Assembly: GCA_031413715.1 (NCBI GenBank)
Contig: JANOFO010000009.1
Coordinates: forward strand, 94,866-158,865
Direction: 5' to 3'
Source: Minisyncoccota bacterium
Lineage (GTDB): Bacteria; Patescibacteriota; Minisyncoccia; Phycocordibacterales; UBA9973
Length of the DNA: 64,000 nt
Shown piece by piece: positions 9,602 to 15,810 of this stretch. The notes beneath the pieces are model-generated. The model searched no databases. It was not told the origin of the DNA and was given only the letters and a program-made list of their open reading frames with translations. Position 1 is the first letter of the stretch; each line of letters opens with the position of its first letter. The translations under genes and the position numbers were made by a program.

Positions 9602-10384
9602 ATGAAAAATACTCCGAATAAGAAGCAAGGCGATACCTCATGGAATAAAGTAGCTTCTTGGTATGATGAATTACTCAAAACAGATACCGATAGCTACCAA
9701 GCGAAAGTTATCGCTCCAAATTTGCTGCGTTTCCTAGATATTAAAAAAGGGGAACAGATATATGATTTGGCATGCGGGCAAGGGTACTTTTCAAATATCT
9801 TTCTCGAGCATGGTGCAAGCGTCGTAGGATCTGATATATCCAAAAGATTGATTGATTCTGCTATTAAAAATTCACAAAAGGGTATCAAATTCTATATATC
9901 TCCGGCTCACAAAGCAGCCTTTATTAAAAGTAACTCCCTAGATACGGTAGTTATAGTTCTTGCAATACAGAATATTGAGAATGTGGCTGAAGTCTTGGTA
10001 GAATGCAAGCGAGTATTAAAAAAGAGCGGCCACATTGTGATTGTAATCAATCATCCAAGCTTCCGTGTTCCTCAGGGAAGTGATTGGTACTTTAATGATG
10101 GCGTGCAATATCGCGCTGTAGGAAAATATCTGTCTGAATCCAAAGTCTATATTGATATGACTCCCGGAGAGAAAAACCTAAAAAAGAAAATCAAAACCGT
10201 TTCTTTCCACAGGTCTCTCCAGTACTATATGAAATTGTTCGCAAAGAATGGCTTTGCAATTACAAAACTCGAAGAGTGGATATCACACAAGCAGAGCCAG
10301 ATGGGTCCTCGACAAAAAGCCGAAGACATCGCCCGCAAGGAAATCCCTATGTTTATGTGTATTGAGGTGAAGAAATTGAGTTAA
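9602..10384 (+). CDS. Class I SAM-dependent methyltransferase.
   Basis: Motif I is IYDLACGQGYFS, and an acidic motif II region follows (VGSDIS). The protein is 260 aa. Confidence 0.75.
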   Translation: MKNTPNKKQGDTSWNKVASWYDELLKTDTDSYQAKVIAPNLLRFLDIKKGEQIYDLACGQGYFSNIFLEHGASVVGSDISKRLIDSAIKNSQKGIKFYISPAHKAAFIKSNSLDTVVIVLAIQNIENVAEVLVECKRVLKKSGHIVIVINHPSFRVPQGSDWYFNDGVQYRAVGKYLSESKVYIDMTPGEKNLKKKIKTVSFHRSLQYYMKLFAKNGFAITKLEEWISHKQSQMGPRQKAEDIARKEIPMFMCIEVKKLS

Positions 10385-10476
10385 TTCCTTCCCTCCTTAC
10401 TAAGGAGGGAATTGAAGGGAGGTTCTTAATTAGGAACCCCTCCTCAATCCTCCCCTTATCAAGGAGAGGAGGAACT
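10385..10476. repeat. Intergenic triple-hairpin repeat element, copy A.
   Basis: It starts directly after a stop codon: TTCCTTCCCTCCTTACTAAGGAGGGAATTGAAGGGAGGTTCTTAATTAGGAACCCCTCC...CCTCCCCTTATCAAGGAGAGG. A near-identical copy (B) lies at 16994..17084. The three stem-loops could act as a bidirectional terminator between convergent genes. Confidence 0.7.
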
Positions 10477-10481
10477 CAAAT

Positions 10482-11063
10482 TCAAGAATTCAGCTTCTTC
10501 AAGGCCTTTGGAATTTTCTTGAAGTCTTTCATGAGCGTCTCGCGCATCCCGCCATTGTAAAGTGCTGCGGCGGGGTGGTAGAGTGGGAGGAAGGCCTGCT
10601 TTTTTCCAAGCTCGGGAATATTTTTTATAAGAAGCTTGCCGTGGATATCAGAGATCTTTTCAGTAGGGAAGAATCGAGTCATAGAGTGTCTGCCTAGGAA
10701 AATTATGAGTTTTGGTTCTATTATTTTAAGCTCGCTTATGAGCCAATCGTTACAGGCTGCTTTCTCTTCAGGCTCTGGATCCCGATTATTTGGCGGGCGA
10801 TACTTTACAATATTTGTAATATAAATATTTTCTCGCTTCATCTTTATGCTCTCTAGCATTTCTGCCAAGAACTTGCCTCCAGCACCGACGAATGGTCGGC
10901 CCTCAATGTCCTCATTTTTCCCTGGAGCCTCGCCTATGAACACAACTTCCGCTTCAGCGTTGCCATCGCCAAATACCGCCTGAGTGGCGGTCTTCTTCAA
11001 TGGACATGTACAATGCTCTTTCCAATAAGCATTTAGTTCATCAAGCTGTTCTCGTTTTGTCAT
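10482..11063 (-). CDS. Uracil-DNA glycosylase, family 4.
   Basis: Motif A is [21 protein letters not shown] and motif B is HPAAALYN. The protein is 193 aa. Its start overlaps the murA stop by 1 nt. Confidence 0.85.
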
Positions 11064-12583
11064 TACTTTAGTATTTTAATATTTGCACCGATAGAATTCA
11101 ATCGCTCGGCTATTTCTTCATATCCACGGTTGATCATGTATACATTACGAAGTATCGATGTGCCTTCGGCTGCAAGCATGCAGATGAGTATGACCATCGA
11201 TGGGCGTAGCGCCGGCGGGCAGACCACTTGGGCTGCTGTGAGGGGTGTGCCTCCTGTGATATAAGCACGGTGAGGGTCGGCAAGGGTTACATTGGCGCCG
11301 AGGCGGTTGAGTTCTGTGAAGTAGATTGCGCGATTCTCATACACCCAGTCGTGGATCATCGTTTGACCCTTGGCCACGATAGCTGCAGGTACAAAGAAGG
11401 GAAGATTGTCCATGTTTATGCCTGGATACGGATTCGCATGGATCTTATCTGGCGGAGCAGTAAGTGTACTTTCCATGATTTCGATATCAACTAGTTTTGT
11501 GCGATTATTATACGATTCATATTTTTTTAATATTTTATACTTGAGTCCCATCTTCGCAAGCTTGTAGAGCTCAAGAGCAAGGAAGTCTATCGGAGCGCGC
11601 GTGATGGTGAGGTTTGAATTTGTGACAATTGCTGCCGAGATGAACATCATAGATTCTATCGGATCCTCGCTATTGTGATATTCGATATTCTTATTTATAT
11701 TTTTCACCCCATGTATTTTTAGAGTCGTTGTGCCAATACCGGTAATTTTTACTCCGAGCTTGCTGAGGAAAAAGCAGATCTCCTGCACCATATAGTTTGC
11801 ACTTGCAAATTGCATTGTGGTAACTTTGTCGATGCCAGCTGCCGCAGTCAATATATTCTCACAAGCAGTATCGCCAGCTTCGTACATAATAATGTTCGCA
11901 GATTTGAGCTTTCCAACTGTGATATCATATTTATCACGACTTATCTTAATTCTTACTCCTAGTTCATGAAGGGCATATCTGTGTGCAGCGATCGTACGCT
12001 TGCCTAAGTTGCATCCTTCAGCGTTAGGAAGAGAGAAGGCATCAAGGTGATGAATAAGCGGACCGATAAGCATAAGGACGGAGCGAGTTCGGATTGCAGA
12101 TTTTACGTTTATATTTTTTAAATTGAATTTCTTCGGTGGTGTAATATGGACCGAATTCTGACCTATCCATTTTACTTTCACGCCGATACTCTCGAGTATT
12201 TCAATAACGCGATACACTTCTTCTATCCGAGCAATACCGTGGAGTGTTGTGATGCCACGATTGAGAAGAGAAGCGCACAAAAGGCCGACCGATCCATTCT
12301 TGGAATAATTTGTTGTAATACTACCCTTGAGTTTACGTCCTCCCTCAATTTGAAAGTCTGGGGAATCATTGACTGATACAATTTCATGCTCAAGAACCTT
12401 GCTTATCTTTGCCAAGAGCTCAGTTGTAAAATTCTGCTCGCCTTTCTCCATGCGAGGGATTGAGCTCTGCGAAGTACCGAGTGCCTTGGCAAGGGCGCCT
12501 TGAGTCATACCCCGACGTTCGCGGAGCTTCTTGATAAAGAAGCCTATTTTTTGAGTCTCTGTTAATTTCTTCATATTTCGCAT
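11063..12583 (-). CDS. murA: UDP-N-acetylglucosamine 1-carboxyvinyltransferase (MurA) with a fused N-terminal XRE-family helix-turn-helix domain.
   Basis: Residues about 14-70 are a Cro/C1-type HTH (RGMTQGALAKALGTSQSSIPRMEKGEQNFTTELLAKISKVL). The remainder is collinear with MurA: it has GSVGLLCASLLN and the catalytic-Cys loop NAEGCNLGKRTIAAHR, and it ends RGYEEIAERLNSIGANIKILK. The protein is 506 aa, against about 420 for a canonical MurA. Confidence 0.85.
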   Translation of the reverse strand: MRNMKKLTETQKIGFFIKKLRERRGMTQGALAKALGTSQSSIPRMEKGEQNFTTELLAKISKVLEHEIVSVNDSPDFQIEGGRKLKGSITTNYSKNGSVGLLCASLLNRGITTLHGIARIEEVYRVIEILESIGVKVKWIGQNSVHITPPKKFNLKNINVKSAIRTRSVLMLIGPLIHHLDAFSLPNAEGCNLGKRTIAAHRYALHELGVRIKISRDKYDITVGKLKSANIIMYEAGDTACENILTAAAGIDKVTTMQFASANYMVQEICFFLSKLGVKITGIGTTTLKIHGVKNINKNIEYHNSEDPIESMMFISAAIVTNSNLTITRAPIDFLALELYKLAKMGLKYKILKKYESYNNRTKLVDIEIMESTLTAPPDKIHANPYPGINMDNLPFFVPAAIVAKGQTMIHDWVYENRAIYFTELNRLGANVTLADPHRAYITGGTPLTAAQVVCPPALRPSMVILICMLAAEGTSILRNVYMINRGYEEIAERLNSIGANIKILK

Positions 12584-12584
12584 T

Positions 12585-12604
12585 TTATATCATATATGAT
12601 ATAA
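12585..12604. promoter_or_regulatory. 20-bp perfect palindrome TTATATCATATATGATATAA in the 28-bp murA/murB divergent intergenic region. It is a candidate operator for the HTH of the MurA fusion and overlaps candidate -10 elements.
   Basis: I checked the reverse complement by eye and the dyad is perfect. It is centred between the divergent start codons at 12583 and 12612, and TATAAT-like hexamers lie on both strands within it. Confidence 0.55.
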
Positions 12605-12611
12605 TTGCAAG

Positions 12612-13634
12612 ATGTTAGAGATTAAAGAAAATGTGGATATCAAAGAATACTGTACACTCCGAGTTGGAGGGCAGTTCCGCTATTTTGTAGAGCTAAATGA
12701 TCCACAGGATCTACCCTTGCTTTACGAATTTGCGAAAGAGAAAAATCTGCCAGTCTTTATATTGGGTGGCGGATCCAATCTAGTCTTTCCTGACGGTATT
12801 TTAAATACTGTGGCTGCCCGCATACAGTTTTGCGGACTTGAAATTTTATCTGATACGGATACACACGTAGATCTCAGGGTTGGAGCAGGAGAATCTTGGG
12901 ACTATATTGTCGAAAATACAGTAGAAGCAAATCTCTGTGGTATTGAGGCTATGTCGGCTATCCCCGGTACTATCGGCGCTACTCCAGTGCAGAATGTGGG
13001 TGCGTACGGCCAGGAAATAAAAGATGTCCTCCAGTCTGTAGATGTATTTGATACAAGCGATAGGGCTTTTAAAACTCTTACAAATGAAGAATGTCATTTT
13101 TCATATAGAAATAGCATATTTAAAAGTGATGCAAAGGGGAGATATGTGATAGTGGCAGTTACTATCAGGCTCGAGAAGCGGGCACCCTACATACCAAACT
13201 ATCCAGGCGTTAAAAAGTATTTCCTCGAGCAAAATATCAACAATCCTACGATACAGGAAATACGTCAAGCTATTATCGAGATCCGAAAGAATAAATTGCC
13301 TGATCCAAAAGATATACCAAGCGTAGGATCATTTTTCAAGAATAGTATCGTTTCAAATGACATAGCCAAGAATTTGAAAAATGAATATCCTGAGATGGTC
13401 TTGTTCCCACTCAATGAAAAAGAAACAAAAGTCCCATCAGGATTCCTTATTGAAAAAGCTGGGCTAAAAGGGCACAATTTTGGGACTATTTCTTCCTATC
13501 CTCATAACGCCATGGTTCTCGTCAATAATGGCGGGGCGACACGGGCAGATGTAGAGAGCACTCGAGATGAAATCGTAAAGATTATCTATGAAAAATTCGG
13601 CATCACCCTCGAGACTGAACCTGAGTTTGTGTAA
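12612..13634 (+). CDS. murB: UDP-N-acetylenolpyruvoylglucosamine reductase (MurB).
   Basis: The FAD-binding PCMH domain start is YCTLRVGGQFRYFVE...LPVFILGGGSNLVF. The protein is 340 aa and is divergent from murA. Confidence 0.85.
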   Translation: MLEIKENVDIKEYCTLRVGGQFRYFVELNDPQDLPLLYEFAKEKNLPVFILGGGSNLVFPDGILNTVAARIQFCGLEILSDTDTHVDLRVGAGESWDYIVENTVEANLCGIEAMSAIPGTIGATPVQNVGAYGQEIKDVLQSVDVFDTSDRAFKTLTNEECHFSYRNSIFKSDAKGRYVIVAVTIRLEKRAPYIPNYPGVKKYFLEQNINNPTIQEIRQAIIEIRKNKLPDPKDIPSVGSFFKNSIVSNDIAKNLKNEYPEMVLFPLNEKETKVPSGFLIEKAGLKGHNFGTISSYPHNAMVLVNNGGATRADVESTRDEIVKIIYEKFGITLETEPEFV

Positions 13635-13635
13635 G

Positions 13636-14199
13636 CTATTCTTTCCAAAGATTTATTTCTTTGATAAAATTAATAACATTTTTTGATAGTCTAACAACAT
13701 ATTTTGTTTTTTCCTTATGAATGACCTTTCTTATTTGAGGTTTGTATCCTAATTTATGCAAACTTTCAAAATAGATGAATGCTAGTTTTTCAATAATCGT
13801 TGTAAAATTTATCATTAGATACCCTCGATCTTTATAAATCGAGCCGTCTGTCTGAGTTAATCCTCGAAGACATTCTTTTGTATATATCTTGTTGTTTAAA
13901 ATCCATAAAGGTATTGAAACATTCTGCCTAAATTTTGATCCACCTTTTGCTTTCCACCCAAGAAGTTCTTCAAGCATATTTGAATGAACATACACATCAA
14001 CACAGCCCTTTCTTTTTATTTCTGAAACTTTATTTTTCGGTAATAGGAGTTGCAATGATTTCTTAATGTGATCTTTCAAAATAGGATATTTATTATCACA
14101 GCTAATGCGAAGTTTAACCGCACGACCATTCGAATTCGATAGATTACCATCTCCAATTGCTACACCTACTATATATGCTAAAAGCTTCTTATTTTTCAA
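13636..14199 (-). CDS. LAGLIDADG-family homing endonuclease-like protein (two motifs, monomeric type). It may use a TTG start.
   Basis: Motif 1 is LLAYIVGVAIGDGNL and motif 2 is LRGLTQTDGSIY. The protein is 187 aa and basic or K-rich. Its 5' end lies 2 nt from the 3' end of tRNA-Leu on the same strand. Confidence 0.7.
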   Translation of the reverse strand: MKNKKLLAYIVGVAIGDGNLSNSNGRAVKLRISCDNKYPILKDHIKKSLQLLLPKNKVSEIKRKGCVDVYVHSNMLEELLGWKAKGGSKFRQNVSIPLWILNNKIYTKECLRGLTQTDGSIYKDRGYLMINFTTIIEKLAFIYFESLHKLGYKPQIRKVIHKEKTKYVVRLSKNVINFIKEINLWKE

Positions 14200-14200
14200 G

Positions 14201-14282
14201 TGCCAGGGGAGGGACTCGAACCCTCAAGTCTTGCGACGATCGATTTTGAGTCGATTACGGTTACCAATTTCGCCACCCTGGC
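14201..14282 (-). tRNA. tRNA-Leu (anticodon CAA).
   Basis: The reverse-complement is GCCAGGGTGGCGAAATTGGTAACCGTAATCGACTCAAAATCGATCGTCGCAAGACTTGAGGGTTCGAGTCCCTCCCCTGGCA. It has a 7-bp acceptor stem, anticodon loop CTCAAAA, a long variable arm and a GTTCGAGTC T-loop. Confidence 0.9.
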
Positions 14283-14334
14283 ATTTACAGGGCTAGTATA
14301 CCAAAATATACTTAAAATGCTAGAATAAGCCCGT

Positions 14335-15810
14335 ATGCCAGAACGAAAGCCAAATTTCACTCCACAACAAGACCAAACCTTTCAAAGTAAAGAAGCTATT
14401 TCCGAGAAACAGTTAGAAAATATAAAAGAAGTATTTGAATTAAATCCTGAATTAGCTGAAATCACTGAAAAAGCGTCTCGTTTATTTCTAGTAAATTCGA
14501 TTCAAAAAGAGAAATCAGAAAAGGAATTATCGTCAGATTTAAAAGAATACTACAAAAAACATTCTGAGAATAAAGAATGGTTAAATATCATATCAGTATA
14601 TCCTCAAGAATTACAAAGAAAAATTATAGAAAAAAGACCAGAGGGCACAGTAGAGAATGTTATAGAACTTCGTGAAAGGTTAAATGAAGAATGGAATCGA
14701 ATTTCTGAGTTATTCCTTAAAGGTTTTTATGAAGGACAAGGTAAGGAGCTTGAAAATGTTCTTACAGCAGGAAGATTTGGTCGTGAAAAGTTAAATTATG
14801 ATGATGAAAGAAAGATTGATGAAATAATTTCAAATATATACACTTGGTTTGACCGTTTTGCGAGTGTTTATTTGCATAAGTTTGAAATTTATCCAGATGA
14901 GAATGTTCGTCAGACTTTCGGTATGAGAAATGTTAGTCTAGATGAAGTGTCACTCAATGATGTTAGAAAAGATAAAGATTGGTACACGAAAGTTGACCTT
15001 TTTATCGAGCAATATTTTAGATTCCTTGCAGCCGGCACCAACGAAAACAAACTAGAGCTAGCAGTACATCTTTTAGATTTTGCTGAGTATTTTGGGAAAA
15101 AAAGTTCAACTGAAGAATATTTTAAGAATTTCCAATTATTACAAAATAACCTTGATCCATCAAAAACAAAAGATAAATCAAGAACATTCTCACCTTTAAA
15201 CAGAGTGGAATCAAATAATAAGACAAATATACTATGGTATTACGGAAACCAAAAAAATCTAAAGTATATGAGAATATTGCCAGACGGGTATGAAATACAG
15301 AACCATTTAAAATCTTATACGAAACCAGGCTTAGAAACATCAAACCATGCGAAAGAATTATATAAAGAGTATCTAGAATCTATTTTCCCTGAAAGTAAGG
15401 TTAAAGATGTTCTTTGGCATGGCAGTAAAGATGTAAAAAAGATTGAGGTGTTTAATAACAGATACTTCAACACAGACCTGAATACTTATGTGAATGGGGT
15501 CTATTTTTCGTTCGGTGTAGATTATGCAGATGATTATAAAAAAGGTAGAAGAGAAGGAGAAGATCTGACTCATTCGGGGACAGTTGCCGCTGTTCTTAAT
15601 GTTAGAAATCCAAAAGAAGCAATAGATGGCGCACGCATGGCTTTAATTAATGATGATGAGCTTAAGCAGCTGAAGGCTGATGGTGCGGATGCTCTTATGT
15701 ATATGAACGAAGAAATTGCAGTTTTTGATAATCAACAAATACATATACTTGGCACAGATAATGATATAGAAGAATTTAAAAAATGGGCAGAAAATCAAAA
15801 TGAAAAATAA
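14335..15810 (+). CDS. Protein with a C-terminal PARP-like (H-Y-E class) ADP-ribosyltransferase catalytic domain. The first roughly 350 N-terminal residues are K/E-rich and helical, with unknown function.
   Basis: The C-terminal region aligns to PARP catalytic signatures. VLWHGS (H362-G-S) matches PARP1 LLWHGS. NGVYFSFGVDYADDY matches the PARP/diphtheria-toxin-class GIYFA...Y. YMNEEIAVFD matches PARP1 LYNEYIVYD, with the catalytic Glu at about residue 459. The spacing between His, Tyr and Glu fits the fold. Confidence 0.6.
   Translation: MPERKPNFTPQQDQTFQSKEAISEKQLENIKEVFELNPELAEITEKASRLFLVNSIQKEKSEKELSSDLKEYYKKHSENKEWLNIISVYPQELQRKIIEKRPEGTVENVIELRERLNEEWNRISELFLKGFYEGQGKELENVLTAGRFGREKLNYDDERKIDEIISNIYTWFDRFASVYLHKFEIYPDENVRQTFGMRNVSLDEVSLNDVRKDKDWYTKVDLFIEQYFRFLAAGTNENKLELAVHLLDFAEYFGKKSSTEEYFKNFQLLQNNLDPSKTKDKSRTFSPLNRVESNNKTNILWYYGNQKNLKYMRILPDGYEIQNHLKSYTKPGLETSNHAKELYKEYLESIFPESKVKDVLWHGSKDVKKIEVFNNRYFNTDLNTYVNGVYFSFGVDYADDYKKGRREGEDLTHSGTVAAVLNVRNPKEAIDGARMALINDDELKQLKADGADALMYMNEEIAVFDNQQIHILGTDNDIEEFKKWAENQNEK

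Follow-up and report, generated by a model that had tools for sequence, protein, structure and literature searches.

The stretch of DNA analysed here, hereafter the window, comprises 64,000 nucleotides (64 kb) from a Minisyncoccota bacterium (GTDB lineage Bacteria; Patescibacteriota; Minisyncoccia; Phycocordibacterales; UBA9973) and corresponds to positions 94,866 to 158,865 of contig JANOFO010000009.1 in GenBank assembly GCA_031413715.1. On its reverse strand, an open reading frame (ORF) of 506 amino acids (aa; 11063..12583) joins, in a single uninterrupted frame, an XRE-type helix-turn-helix (HTH) domain, a flexible linker, and a complete MurA, the enzyme of the first committed step of peptidoglycan precursor synthesis. 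The gene for the second step, murB, diverges from it, and a perfect 20-bp palindrome, TTATATCATATATGATATAA, lies between the two (Table 1). Here, the evidence is examined that this protein, HTH-MurA, is a trigger enzyme that reads the palindrome as an operator and represses both genes.

Table 1. Positions of the genes, domains, and predicted regulatory elements (window coordinates unless a locus is named; residues are numbered on the 506-aa ORF).
Feature	Position	Strand	Basis or remark
HTH-MurA coding sequence, probable true extent	11063..12574	-	503 aa, starts MKKLTE; TAA stop at 11063..11065
XRE/Cro-C1 type HTH, aa 17-64, recognition helix within TSQSSIPRMEKGEQN	12392..12535	-	Pfam HTH_3 and AlphaFold
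Flexible linker between HTH and MurA, approximately aa 65-75	12359..12391	-	Low model confidence
MurA domain (UDP-GlcNAc 1-carboxyvinyltransferase, EC 2.5.1.7), aa 76-504	11072..12358	-	PRK09369, residues, Foldseek
Catalytic Cys191 codon	12011..12013	-	Comparison with E. coli C115
Predicted operator, perfect 20-bp palindrome	12585..12604		Sequence, position-weight-matrix scan, conservation
Predicted murA promoter	12582..12610	-	-35 TTGCAA (12610..12605), 17-nt spacer = operator, -10 TAAAAT (12587..12582)
Predicted murB promoter	12577..12605	+	-35 TTCGCA (12577..12582), 17-nt spacer, extended -10 TGaTATAAT (12597..12605)
murB (UDP-N-acetylenolpyruvoylglucosamine reductase), second pathway step, divergent	12612..13634	+	Pfam MurB_C and FAD_binding_4; NCBIfam PRK00046, 342 against cut-off 277
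Uracil-DNA-glycosylase-family gene (udg)	10482..11063	-	Pfam UDG, E 1e-33
DnaA-box-like element aTATCCACA	12632..12640	-	32 nt upstream of operator core on the murA strand, inside murB codons 7-10
Loci of predicted dead paralogues beside murB, Mur ligase, ddl, or relA genes	L081 124-3003; L208 95-5003; L209 1504-5530; L210 1388-5467		30-41% identity; catalytic Cys loop and several Arg residues lost

The two halves of the protein are each recognised independently. The N-terminal domain matches Pfam HTH_3 (PF01381) with 47.3 bits against a cut-off of 23 (E 2e-12), and the remainder matches EPSP_synthase (PF00275) over the full length of the profile (aa 80-495, E 2e-38) and scores 311 against a cut-off of 297 for the NCBIfam MurA subfamily PRK09369. 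Together with the single frame, these matches bear out the original prediction, made from the letters of the window, that an XRE HTH is fused to the N-terminus of MurA. A total of nine E. coli MurA residues that serve in catalysis or in the binding of phosphoenolpyruvate (PEP) or UDP-N-acetylglucosamine (UDP-GlcNAc) were examined (K22, N23, R91, C115, R120, D305, R331, R371, and R397), and all nine are kept (as K95, N96, R167, C191, R196, D392, R418, R460, and R486, respectively); from these, we infer that the MurA half is catalytically competent. In an AlphaFold model with a mean predicted local distance difference test (pLDDT) of 93.4, an independent HTH, a disordered linker, and the MurA fold follow one another in sequence. 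The HTH is modelled as four helices (residues 6-20, 25-32, 38-43, and 51-60; pLDDT about 90), the usual fifth helix not being seen, and the linker is the least confident part of the model, its pLDDT falling below 50 at residues 67-69 as numbered in the model. Foldseek aligned the model to solved MurA structures with target-normalised template modelling (TM) scores of 0.92-0.93, and none of those structures carries the HTH. The nearest solved domains to the HTH are restriction-modification (R-M) controller proteins (C.Esp1396I, PDB 3clc) and HipB, which are dimeric autorepressors that act on palindromes.

The gene probably begins at the second ATG (12574), rather than at the first (12583), because the first overlaps a -10 box and because the gap between -10 box and ATG is conserved at 6-8 nt. 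Alignments of orthologues mostly begin at ORF residue 4, and the orthologues are mostly 502-504 aa long. This choice between two ATGs is the only point in favour of regarding the fusion as an artefact, whether through a wrongly called start, a frameshift, or an assembly error that joined murA to a small XRE gene. The uninterrupted frame and the recurrence of the same architecture in thousands of independent assemblies, as well as in RefSeq proteins of cultured Nonomuraea, make such an origin negligibly probable. The start codon also affects the size of the murA/murB intergenic region, which had been put at 28 bp; the region is indeed short and divergent, but that figure presupposes the ATG at 12583, and the likely start gives 37-38 bp to the murB ATG (12612).

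The palindrome was found at 12585..12604 exactly as described in the original prediction, and it exceeds every other perfect palindrome of the window in length. Palindromes with arms of at least 10 nt arise 0.12 times per composition-matched shuffled window, and because of this chance rate the palindrome by itself is only mildly significant. In a position-weight-matrix scan the operator scored 31.9 bits, the next site in the 64 kb scored -1.1, and the best site in shuffled sequence scored 8.9; likewise, a second copy of the palindrome with up to 3 mismatches was found neither in the window nor in 100 shuffles. A regulon of further operator sites within the window was considered and is rejected on the basis of the position-weight-matrix scan. 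The palindrome lies between the -35 and -10 elements of two predicted divergent promoters that overlap fully, in agreement with the earlier statement that it overlaps candidate -10 hexamers on both strands. The murB promoter matches the consensus at 10 of 12 positions and has a TG motif in addition, and the -10 element is separated from the ATG by 7 nt for murA (ATG 12574) and by 6 nt for murB. Since the spacer of each promoter is taken up by the operator, a protein bound there would block both.

This promoter geometry recurs when 64 orthologous regions are aligned on the palindrome. On the murA side, the -35 element is TTGCAA in 30 of 64 loci, the -10 element is TATAAT, TATACT, or TAAAAT in 50 of 64, and in 39 of 64 the first in-frame ATG follows the -10 element at a distance of 6-8 nt; on the murB side, the same distance is found in 31 of the 34 murB-divergent loci. 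Given these short, conserved gaps and the absence of any visible Shine-Dalgarno sequence, the murA and murB mRNAs are both probably leaderless. Both predicted transcription starts fall outside the palindrome, which would therefore not be transcribed. An RNA element was also considered and rejected, since an Rfam scan of positions 10000..15000 (E of 0.1 or lower) returned only a tRNA-Leu and weak matches to a hairpin elsewhere, leaving the intergenic region empty.

The fusion is widespread among relatives of the organism. The best 120 matches in a database of 5.8 billion proteins are all fused, with both domains and lengths of 501-521 aa, and are annotated as MurA from Paceibacterota, Nomurabacteria, or Patescibacteria. 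Moreover, among contigs sampled at one genome per species, at least 591 species-level Patescibacteria genomes carry it (591 of 600 matched stretches encode a relative). The original prediction set out from the view that MurA normally lacks a DNA-binding domain; in this lineage, the fusion is not rare but is the usual form of MurA. The HTH is also as well conserved as the enzyme, the mean pairwise identity among 121 homologues being 82% for the HTH and 81% for the enzyme domain, and since all of the best 120 matches carry it, the extension is neither absent from orthologues nor poorly conserved, as a mis-called start might have left it.

Strong evidence for a link between the HTH and the palindrome comes from their joint presence and absence. 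Of 72 fused loci, including that in the window, 2 have no upstream DNA, and in 70 of the 70 assessable loci the family consensus TAT[A/C]TCATATATGA[T/G]ATA stands at the head of the transcription unit, in one locus (L037) as a single-mismatch variant. In 65 of the 70 the distance to the ATG is no more than 200 nt, and in 4 fused loci one or two additional genes separate the promoter from HTH-murA, the motif standing in front of them. Conversely, the operator motif was found in 0 of 9 close orthologues (74-78% identity) that lack the HTH, searched over about 7 kb each. Co-occurrence of fusion and palindrome in related genomes had been proposed as a check on the original reading of the palindrome as an autoregulatory site, and the coupling (70/70 fused versus 0/9 unfused) supports that reading. 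In the unfused orthologues (L070, L072, L073, and L075-L080), murA begins 2-20 nt after tRNA-Leu and has no promoter of its own, apparently being co-transcribed with the tRNA. A neighbour-joining tree places these nine at about six positions inside the fused clade, which suggests that single deletions repeatedly removed a DnaA-like box (described below), the promoter, the operator, and the HTH together.

The operator is also retained in far more distant fusions. Among clustered representatives, fused proteins reach down to about 30% identity, and the operator precedes fusions of 30-51% identity in seven loci (L081, L084, L085, L087, L208, L209, and L210). In L081 it reads TTGACAATATATCATATATGATATTAAATA, and in L085 it reads TTGCAATATATCATATAGGATATATAAT and heads an operon of NUDIX, NTP-transferase, and HTH-MurA genes; L087, L208, and L210 share the same operator core, and L209 has a degenerate variant. 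One of these hosts is Nonomuraea sp. NEAU-A123 (L084 2972-4530; JAHFZZ010000002.1), a member of a cultured actinomycete genus with a guanine-plus-cytosine (GC) content of 70%, whose 51%-identical HTH-MurA belongs to a 246-member cluster that includes WP_214634277.1. Here the operator is an AT-rich palindrome, ATCTCATATGTGAGAT, placed 11 nt before the HTH-MurA ATG. The genes that directly follow this fusion, one for a phage-type integrase and one for a small XRE protein, hint at its acquisition by horizontal transfer. A longer imperfect palindrome centred on the operator was observed in L044 (1630-1703), with 37-nt arms that are 78% complementary and include ACGGGACAAGTATTG and CAAATACTTGTCCCGT, and similarly in L028, L029, L003, L009, and L034; in loci of this kind the murA start lies 110-154 nt from the operator and murB is displaced as well.

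These comparisons bear on the possibility that the palindrome merely results from the overlap of two divergent, leaderless promoters, each arm being an extended -10 element resembling TGnTATAAT and RNA polymerase being the only protein that binds. The ends of the arms do coincide with -10 hexamers on both strands, and the sequence is AT-rich, with the chance rate given above. Nevertheless, of the 64 operator-bearing loci only 36 have a divergent murB in the same geometry; 28 do not, their upstream neighbour often being a tRNA, and because these 28 keep the palindrome whole, with a left arm and a central TCATATATGA that promoter elements do not require, symmetry between back-to-back -10 elements cannot account for it. 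The palindrome is further kept at the heads of operons and in a genome of 70% GC, it is missing in every case that lacks the HTH, and the same 18-mer precedes unrelated XRE genes, as described below. An origin of this kind is therefore considered very improbable.

Whether this particular HTH reads this particular site was approached from both the protein and the DNA. Where both half-sites are of the C type (TATCTCATA; C at operator position 4), the recognition helix is of the type SQSS[IV]PR in 9 of 9 loci, and where neither half-site is, the helix is of the type SQSA[V/I][A/V]R in 28 of 29 loci. Strict covariation of helix and operator is rejected, however, since this is a tendency with exceptions, among them the window. 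From the DNA side, 80 metagenomic occurrences of the 18-mer were sampled; in 33 of them, an ORF that matches this HTH profile is found no more than 900 nt away, against a background of 0.006 per 1.8 kb. These 33 consist of 18 HTH-MurA fusions (49-81% identity, GC 0.33-0.64) and 15 small XRE genes, several of the latter being the second gene of a pair of Gp49 (RelE/HigB-like) toxin and XRE antitoxin. In the other 47 occurrences, the palindrome falls in AT-rich simple repeats or lacks a recognisable HTH partner close by. The small XRE genes and simple repeats of this sample rule out that the palindrome is exclusive to HTH-MurA. Judged by the company it keeps, the palindrome is the operator of a clade of XRE domains.

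An identical 18-bp palindrome was observed in the promoters of two-gene Gp49/XRE modules in L116 (as TTGACAaTATATCATATATGATATAtaat), L117, L122, L146, L148, L159, and L161. The promoter, operator, and HTH of HTH-MurA may have been captured as a cassette from a toxin-antitoxin module of the Gp49/HigB-HigA type. One further metagenomic copy (L165 2169-2186) lies 9 nt upstream of a gene resembling glmS, which encodes glutamine-fructose-6-phosphate aminotransferase, the first step towards UDP-GlcNAc. This gene could be an additional member of the regulon or could have acquired its site by chance.

The small XRE genes also raise the question of whether the operator is bound by a separate XRE protein, for instance an antitoxin with the same recognition helix, while the HTH of MurA serves in protein contacts or in tethering to the nucleoid. 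Some stand-alone XRE proteins that adjoin the palindrome elsewhere do have an identical or similar helix (e.g., TSQSAVARMESG). However, the presence or absence of the operator tracks the fused HTH exactly over 79 loci, through repeated independent losses, and the 64 kb hold no second operator site and hence no operator-linked XRE gene, XRE genes without an operator having been outside that search. A division of labour between two proteins thus appears very implausible.

Seven distant fused clusters (P0128, P0130, P0137, P0138, P0142, P0197, and P0216) lack C115 and various of R91, R120, R371, and R397. Four of the seven are found in clusters of peptidoglycan genes. Three of these (P0128, P0130, and P0142) are each divergent from an operon led by a canonical murA, which continues with murB in L081 and L209 and with a Mur ligase in L208, and either ddl or a Mur ligase comes after the fused gene in every case. 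The fourth, P0216, has murB and a relA/spoT gene upstream of it. P0137 shares an operon with the NUDIX and NTP-transferase genes that precede it; no peptidoglycan gene was found near P0197. The contig of P0138 (L086) is too short upstream for its operator or neighbourhood to be judged, and the other six all keep the operator. These paralogues, which are at present annotated as MurA, are probably pure regulators with the MurA-like domain as sensor. The family may record a transition from enzyme to sensor, in which a bifunctional MurA gave rise to dead MurA-fold regulators of a neighbouring murA-murB, mur-ligase, or ddl cluster.

The dead paralogues, three of which stand beside a canonical murA, likewise lend some weight to the idea that the protein of the window is itself only a MurA-derived sensor and that a canonical MurA elsewhere carries out catalysis, as does its score under the strict NCBIfam equivalog TIGR01072 (299.5 against a cut-off of 392.7). 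The nine intact key residues speak against this idea, as do the orthologues of 74-78% identity that lack the HTH and are nested in the same clade, for which the sole plausible role is enzymatic. Moreover, a search of the window by tblastn with E. coli MurA found this gene alone and no second murA, and no second gene with an EPSP-synthase fold or resembling murA was found within 3 kb of the gene in 71 fused related loci. A role as regulator only is accordingly judged unlikely, and HTH-MurA may be the sole MurA of this clade.

Taken together, the observations favour, at a probability of about 0.78, the reading that HTH-MurA binds the palindrome and represses murA and murB, i.e., that it is an autorepressing trigger enzyme. 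Two HTH domains, probably as a dimer, would occupy the half-sites ATATCA and TGATAT, whose centres are 10 bp apart; this spacing and the tendency of helix and operator to covary lend indirect support to sequence-specific binding by a dimer. The occupied operator would exclude RNA polymerase from both overlapping promoters, and the protein would in this manner repress its own operon (HTH-murA-udg) together with murB, which is a probable co-regulated target. The first two committed steps in the synthesis of UDP-N-acetylmuramic acid (UDP-MurNAc) would stay under negative feedback as a result. The domain architecture, the intact catalytic residues, and the operator's position, uniqueness in the window, and phylogenetic coupling to the HTH are shown in silico, and from these we infer DNA binding, dimerisation, repression as the sign of the control, and enzyme activity. 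XRE regulators are typically dimeric autoregulators that act on palindromes (PMC12565409).

Several points weigh against this reading. MurA is classically a monomer, and the model HTH has only four helices, which bears on how the predicted dimer would form. The promoters and transcription starts are consensus predictions, for which a sigma-70-like consensus is assumed in Patescibacteria, and the outer bases of each palindrome arm also form -10 elements, such that the promoters could drive part of the symmetry at murB-divergent loci. The covariation of helix and operator is confounded by phylogeny; the window itself is an exception to it, combining a SIP helix with A-type half-sites, and helices of the SAVN type pair with C-type sites in high-GC genomes. 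The genome may also hold a further MurA, the search for one having covered the window and 3 kb around the gene in the 71 fused related loci. The score below the TIGR01072 cut-off and the chance rate of a palindrome of this length count on the same side.

A further and more tentative proposal, to which slightly less than even odds are given, is that the ligand state of the MurA domain gates binding to the operator, making the protein a metabolite-gated transcription factor. The open or closed state of MurA, as set by UDP-GlcNAc or by the "dormant" complex with UDP-MurNAc and the PEP adduct, may determine affinity for the operator; in that case, the level of murA and murB transcription would be dictated directly by flux through the first committed step of the peptidoglycan pathway. 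Gating is suggested by the dead HTH-MurA paralogues that flank canonical murA-murB operons; since these resemble MurA-fold sensors, they are the chief ground for supposing that in the active fusions, too, DNA binding may be modulated by the MurA domain. In PDB 3swd and 3su9, MurA is locked with UDP-MurNAc and the Cys-PEP adduct in a product-bound closed state, which, speculatively, could serve as the signal.

A second regulatory input may act at the same locus, for example from DnaA. A box resembling TTATCCACA (at most 1 mismatch), in fixed orientation relative to murA and within 70 nt, accompanies the operator in 43 of 69 operator-bearing loci, against a background of 0.024 per 70 nt, and lies mostly 10-33 nt upstream of the operator core (L002-L071 and the window). 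At murB-divergent loci the box keeps a constant distance of 31-32 nt and falls within murB codons 7-10, and at other loci it lies in non-coding DNA. An origin of replication (oriC) was considered and rejected, as the window has no cluster of DnaA-like boxes.

Downstream of HTH-murA, the stop codon of murA and the ATG of udg overlap as TAATG (11061..11065), as read from the sequence. Because of this overlap, udg is probably co-transcribed with HTH-murA, which would place a DNA-repair gene in the same operon. Beyond udg, a hairpin of about 100 nt at 10374..10483 lies between the convergent methyltransferase (9602..10384) and UDG genes. It has weak, sub-threshold matches to plant microRNA precursor models and is most simply a bidirectional terminator or stem-loop. 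On the murB side, a tRNA-Leu(CAA) gene (14200..14282, reverse strand) is directly followed by a 187-aa LAGLIDADG-type ORF (13636..14199, reverse strand), which may be the remnant of a homing endonuclease beside the tRNA gene.

In the architecture of one polypeptide with an N-terminal DNA-binding domain and a metabolic enzyme, in an operator at the promoter of its own pathway, and in the proposed negative feedback tied to the state of that pathway, HTH-MurA is like the trigger enzymes BirA (a biotin ligase with an N-terminal winged HTH), PutA (a ribbon-helix-helix domain and proline dehydrogenase), and NadR (an HTH and nicotinamide mononucleotide [NMN] adenylyltransferase). It differs from them in combining an XRE HTH with the enolpyruvyl-transferase fold, in acting on the peptidoglycan precursor pathway, and in an operator that would serve two overlapping divergent promoters with probably leaderless mRNAs; moreover, its DNA binding and effector are predictions. 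Trigger enzymes as a concept have been reviewed (PMC6524683).

With C.Esp1396I, HipB, and the HigA-type antitoxins of Gp49/HigB, it shares the HTH_3 fold and a palindrome in its own promoter, which in the Gp49 toxin/XRE antitoxin pairs is the same 18-bp sequence. Those proteins, however, are stand-alone regulators of 70-150 aa that control toxin, restriction, or phage genes, whereas HTH-MurA is a fusion to a housekeeping enzyme of 430 aa and is predicted to act on cell-wall genes. Canonical MurA from E. coli or E. cloacae (PDB 1uae and 3swd) corresponds in fold, in key residues, and in an adjacent murB, but is only 26-28% identical and lacks the N-terminal HTH and linker. Known control of MurA is post-translational, through feedback by UDP-MurNAc, as in the 3swd and 3su9 complexes, and through proteolysis by ClpCP in Firmicutes, rather than transcriptional and exerted by the enzyme. 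The dead paralogues (P0128, P0130, P0142, and others), in turn, are like MocR (a GntR HTH with an aminotransferase fold) and the ROK repressors NagC and Mlc in using an enzyme fold as a sensor beside pathway genes, from which the HTH-MurA of the window differs in its still intact active site. Full-text literature searches found no paper on an HTH-MurA fusion or on a regulator encoded within MurA, apparent hits to the name "Murarka" in PMC12565409 and to the reference list of the Lipocone preprint proving false, and in the literature searched there was no report of the MurA fold as the effector domain of a transcription factor. In databases, these proteins are labelled only "MurA" or "HTH domain-containing protein".

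Some proteins labelled "MurA" are probably not enzymes, which is of consequence for annotation. More broadly, how the committed step of peptidoglycan synthesis is controlled at the level of transcription is poorly understood, and a MurA that reads its own promoter would, if the proposal is true, be a new and very direct design of feedback. It would also provide a rare defined pair of regulator and operator in Patescibacteria, a largely uncultured group with small genomes. The presence of both fusion and operator in cultured Nonomuraea (e.g., WP_214634277.1) makes the hypothesis testable without culturing a Patescibacterium. Finally, with active fusions, repeated losses of the HTH, and dead paralogues beside canonical murA, the family offers a test case for the evolution of regulators from enzymes.

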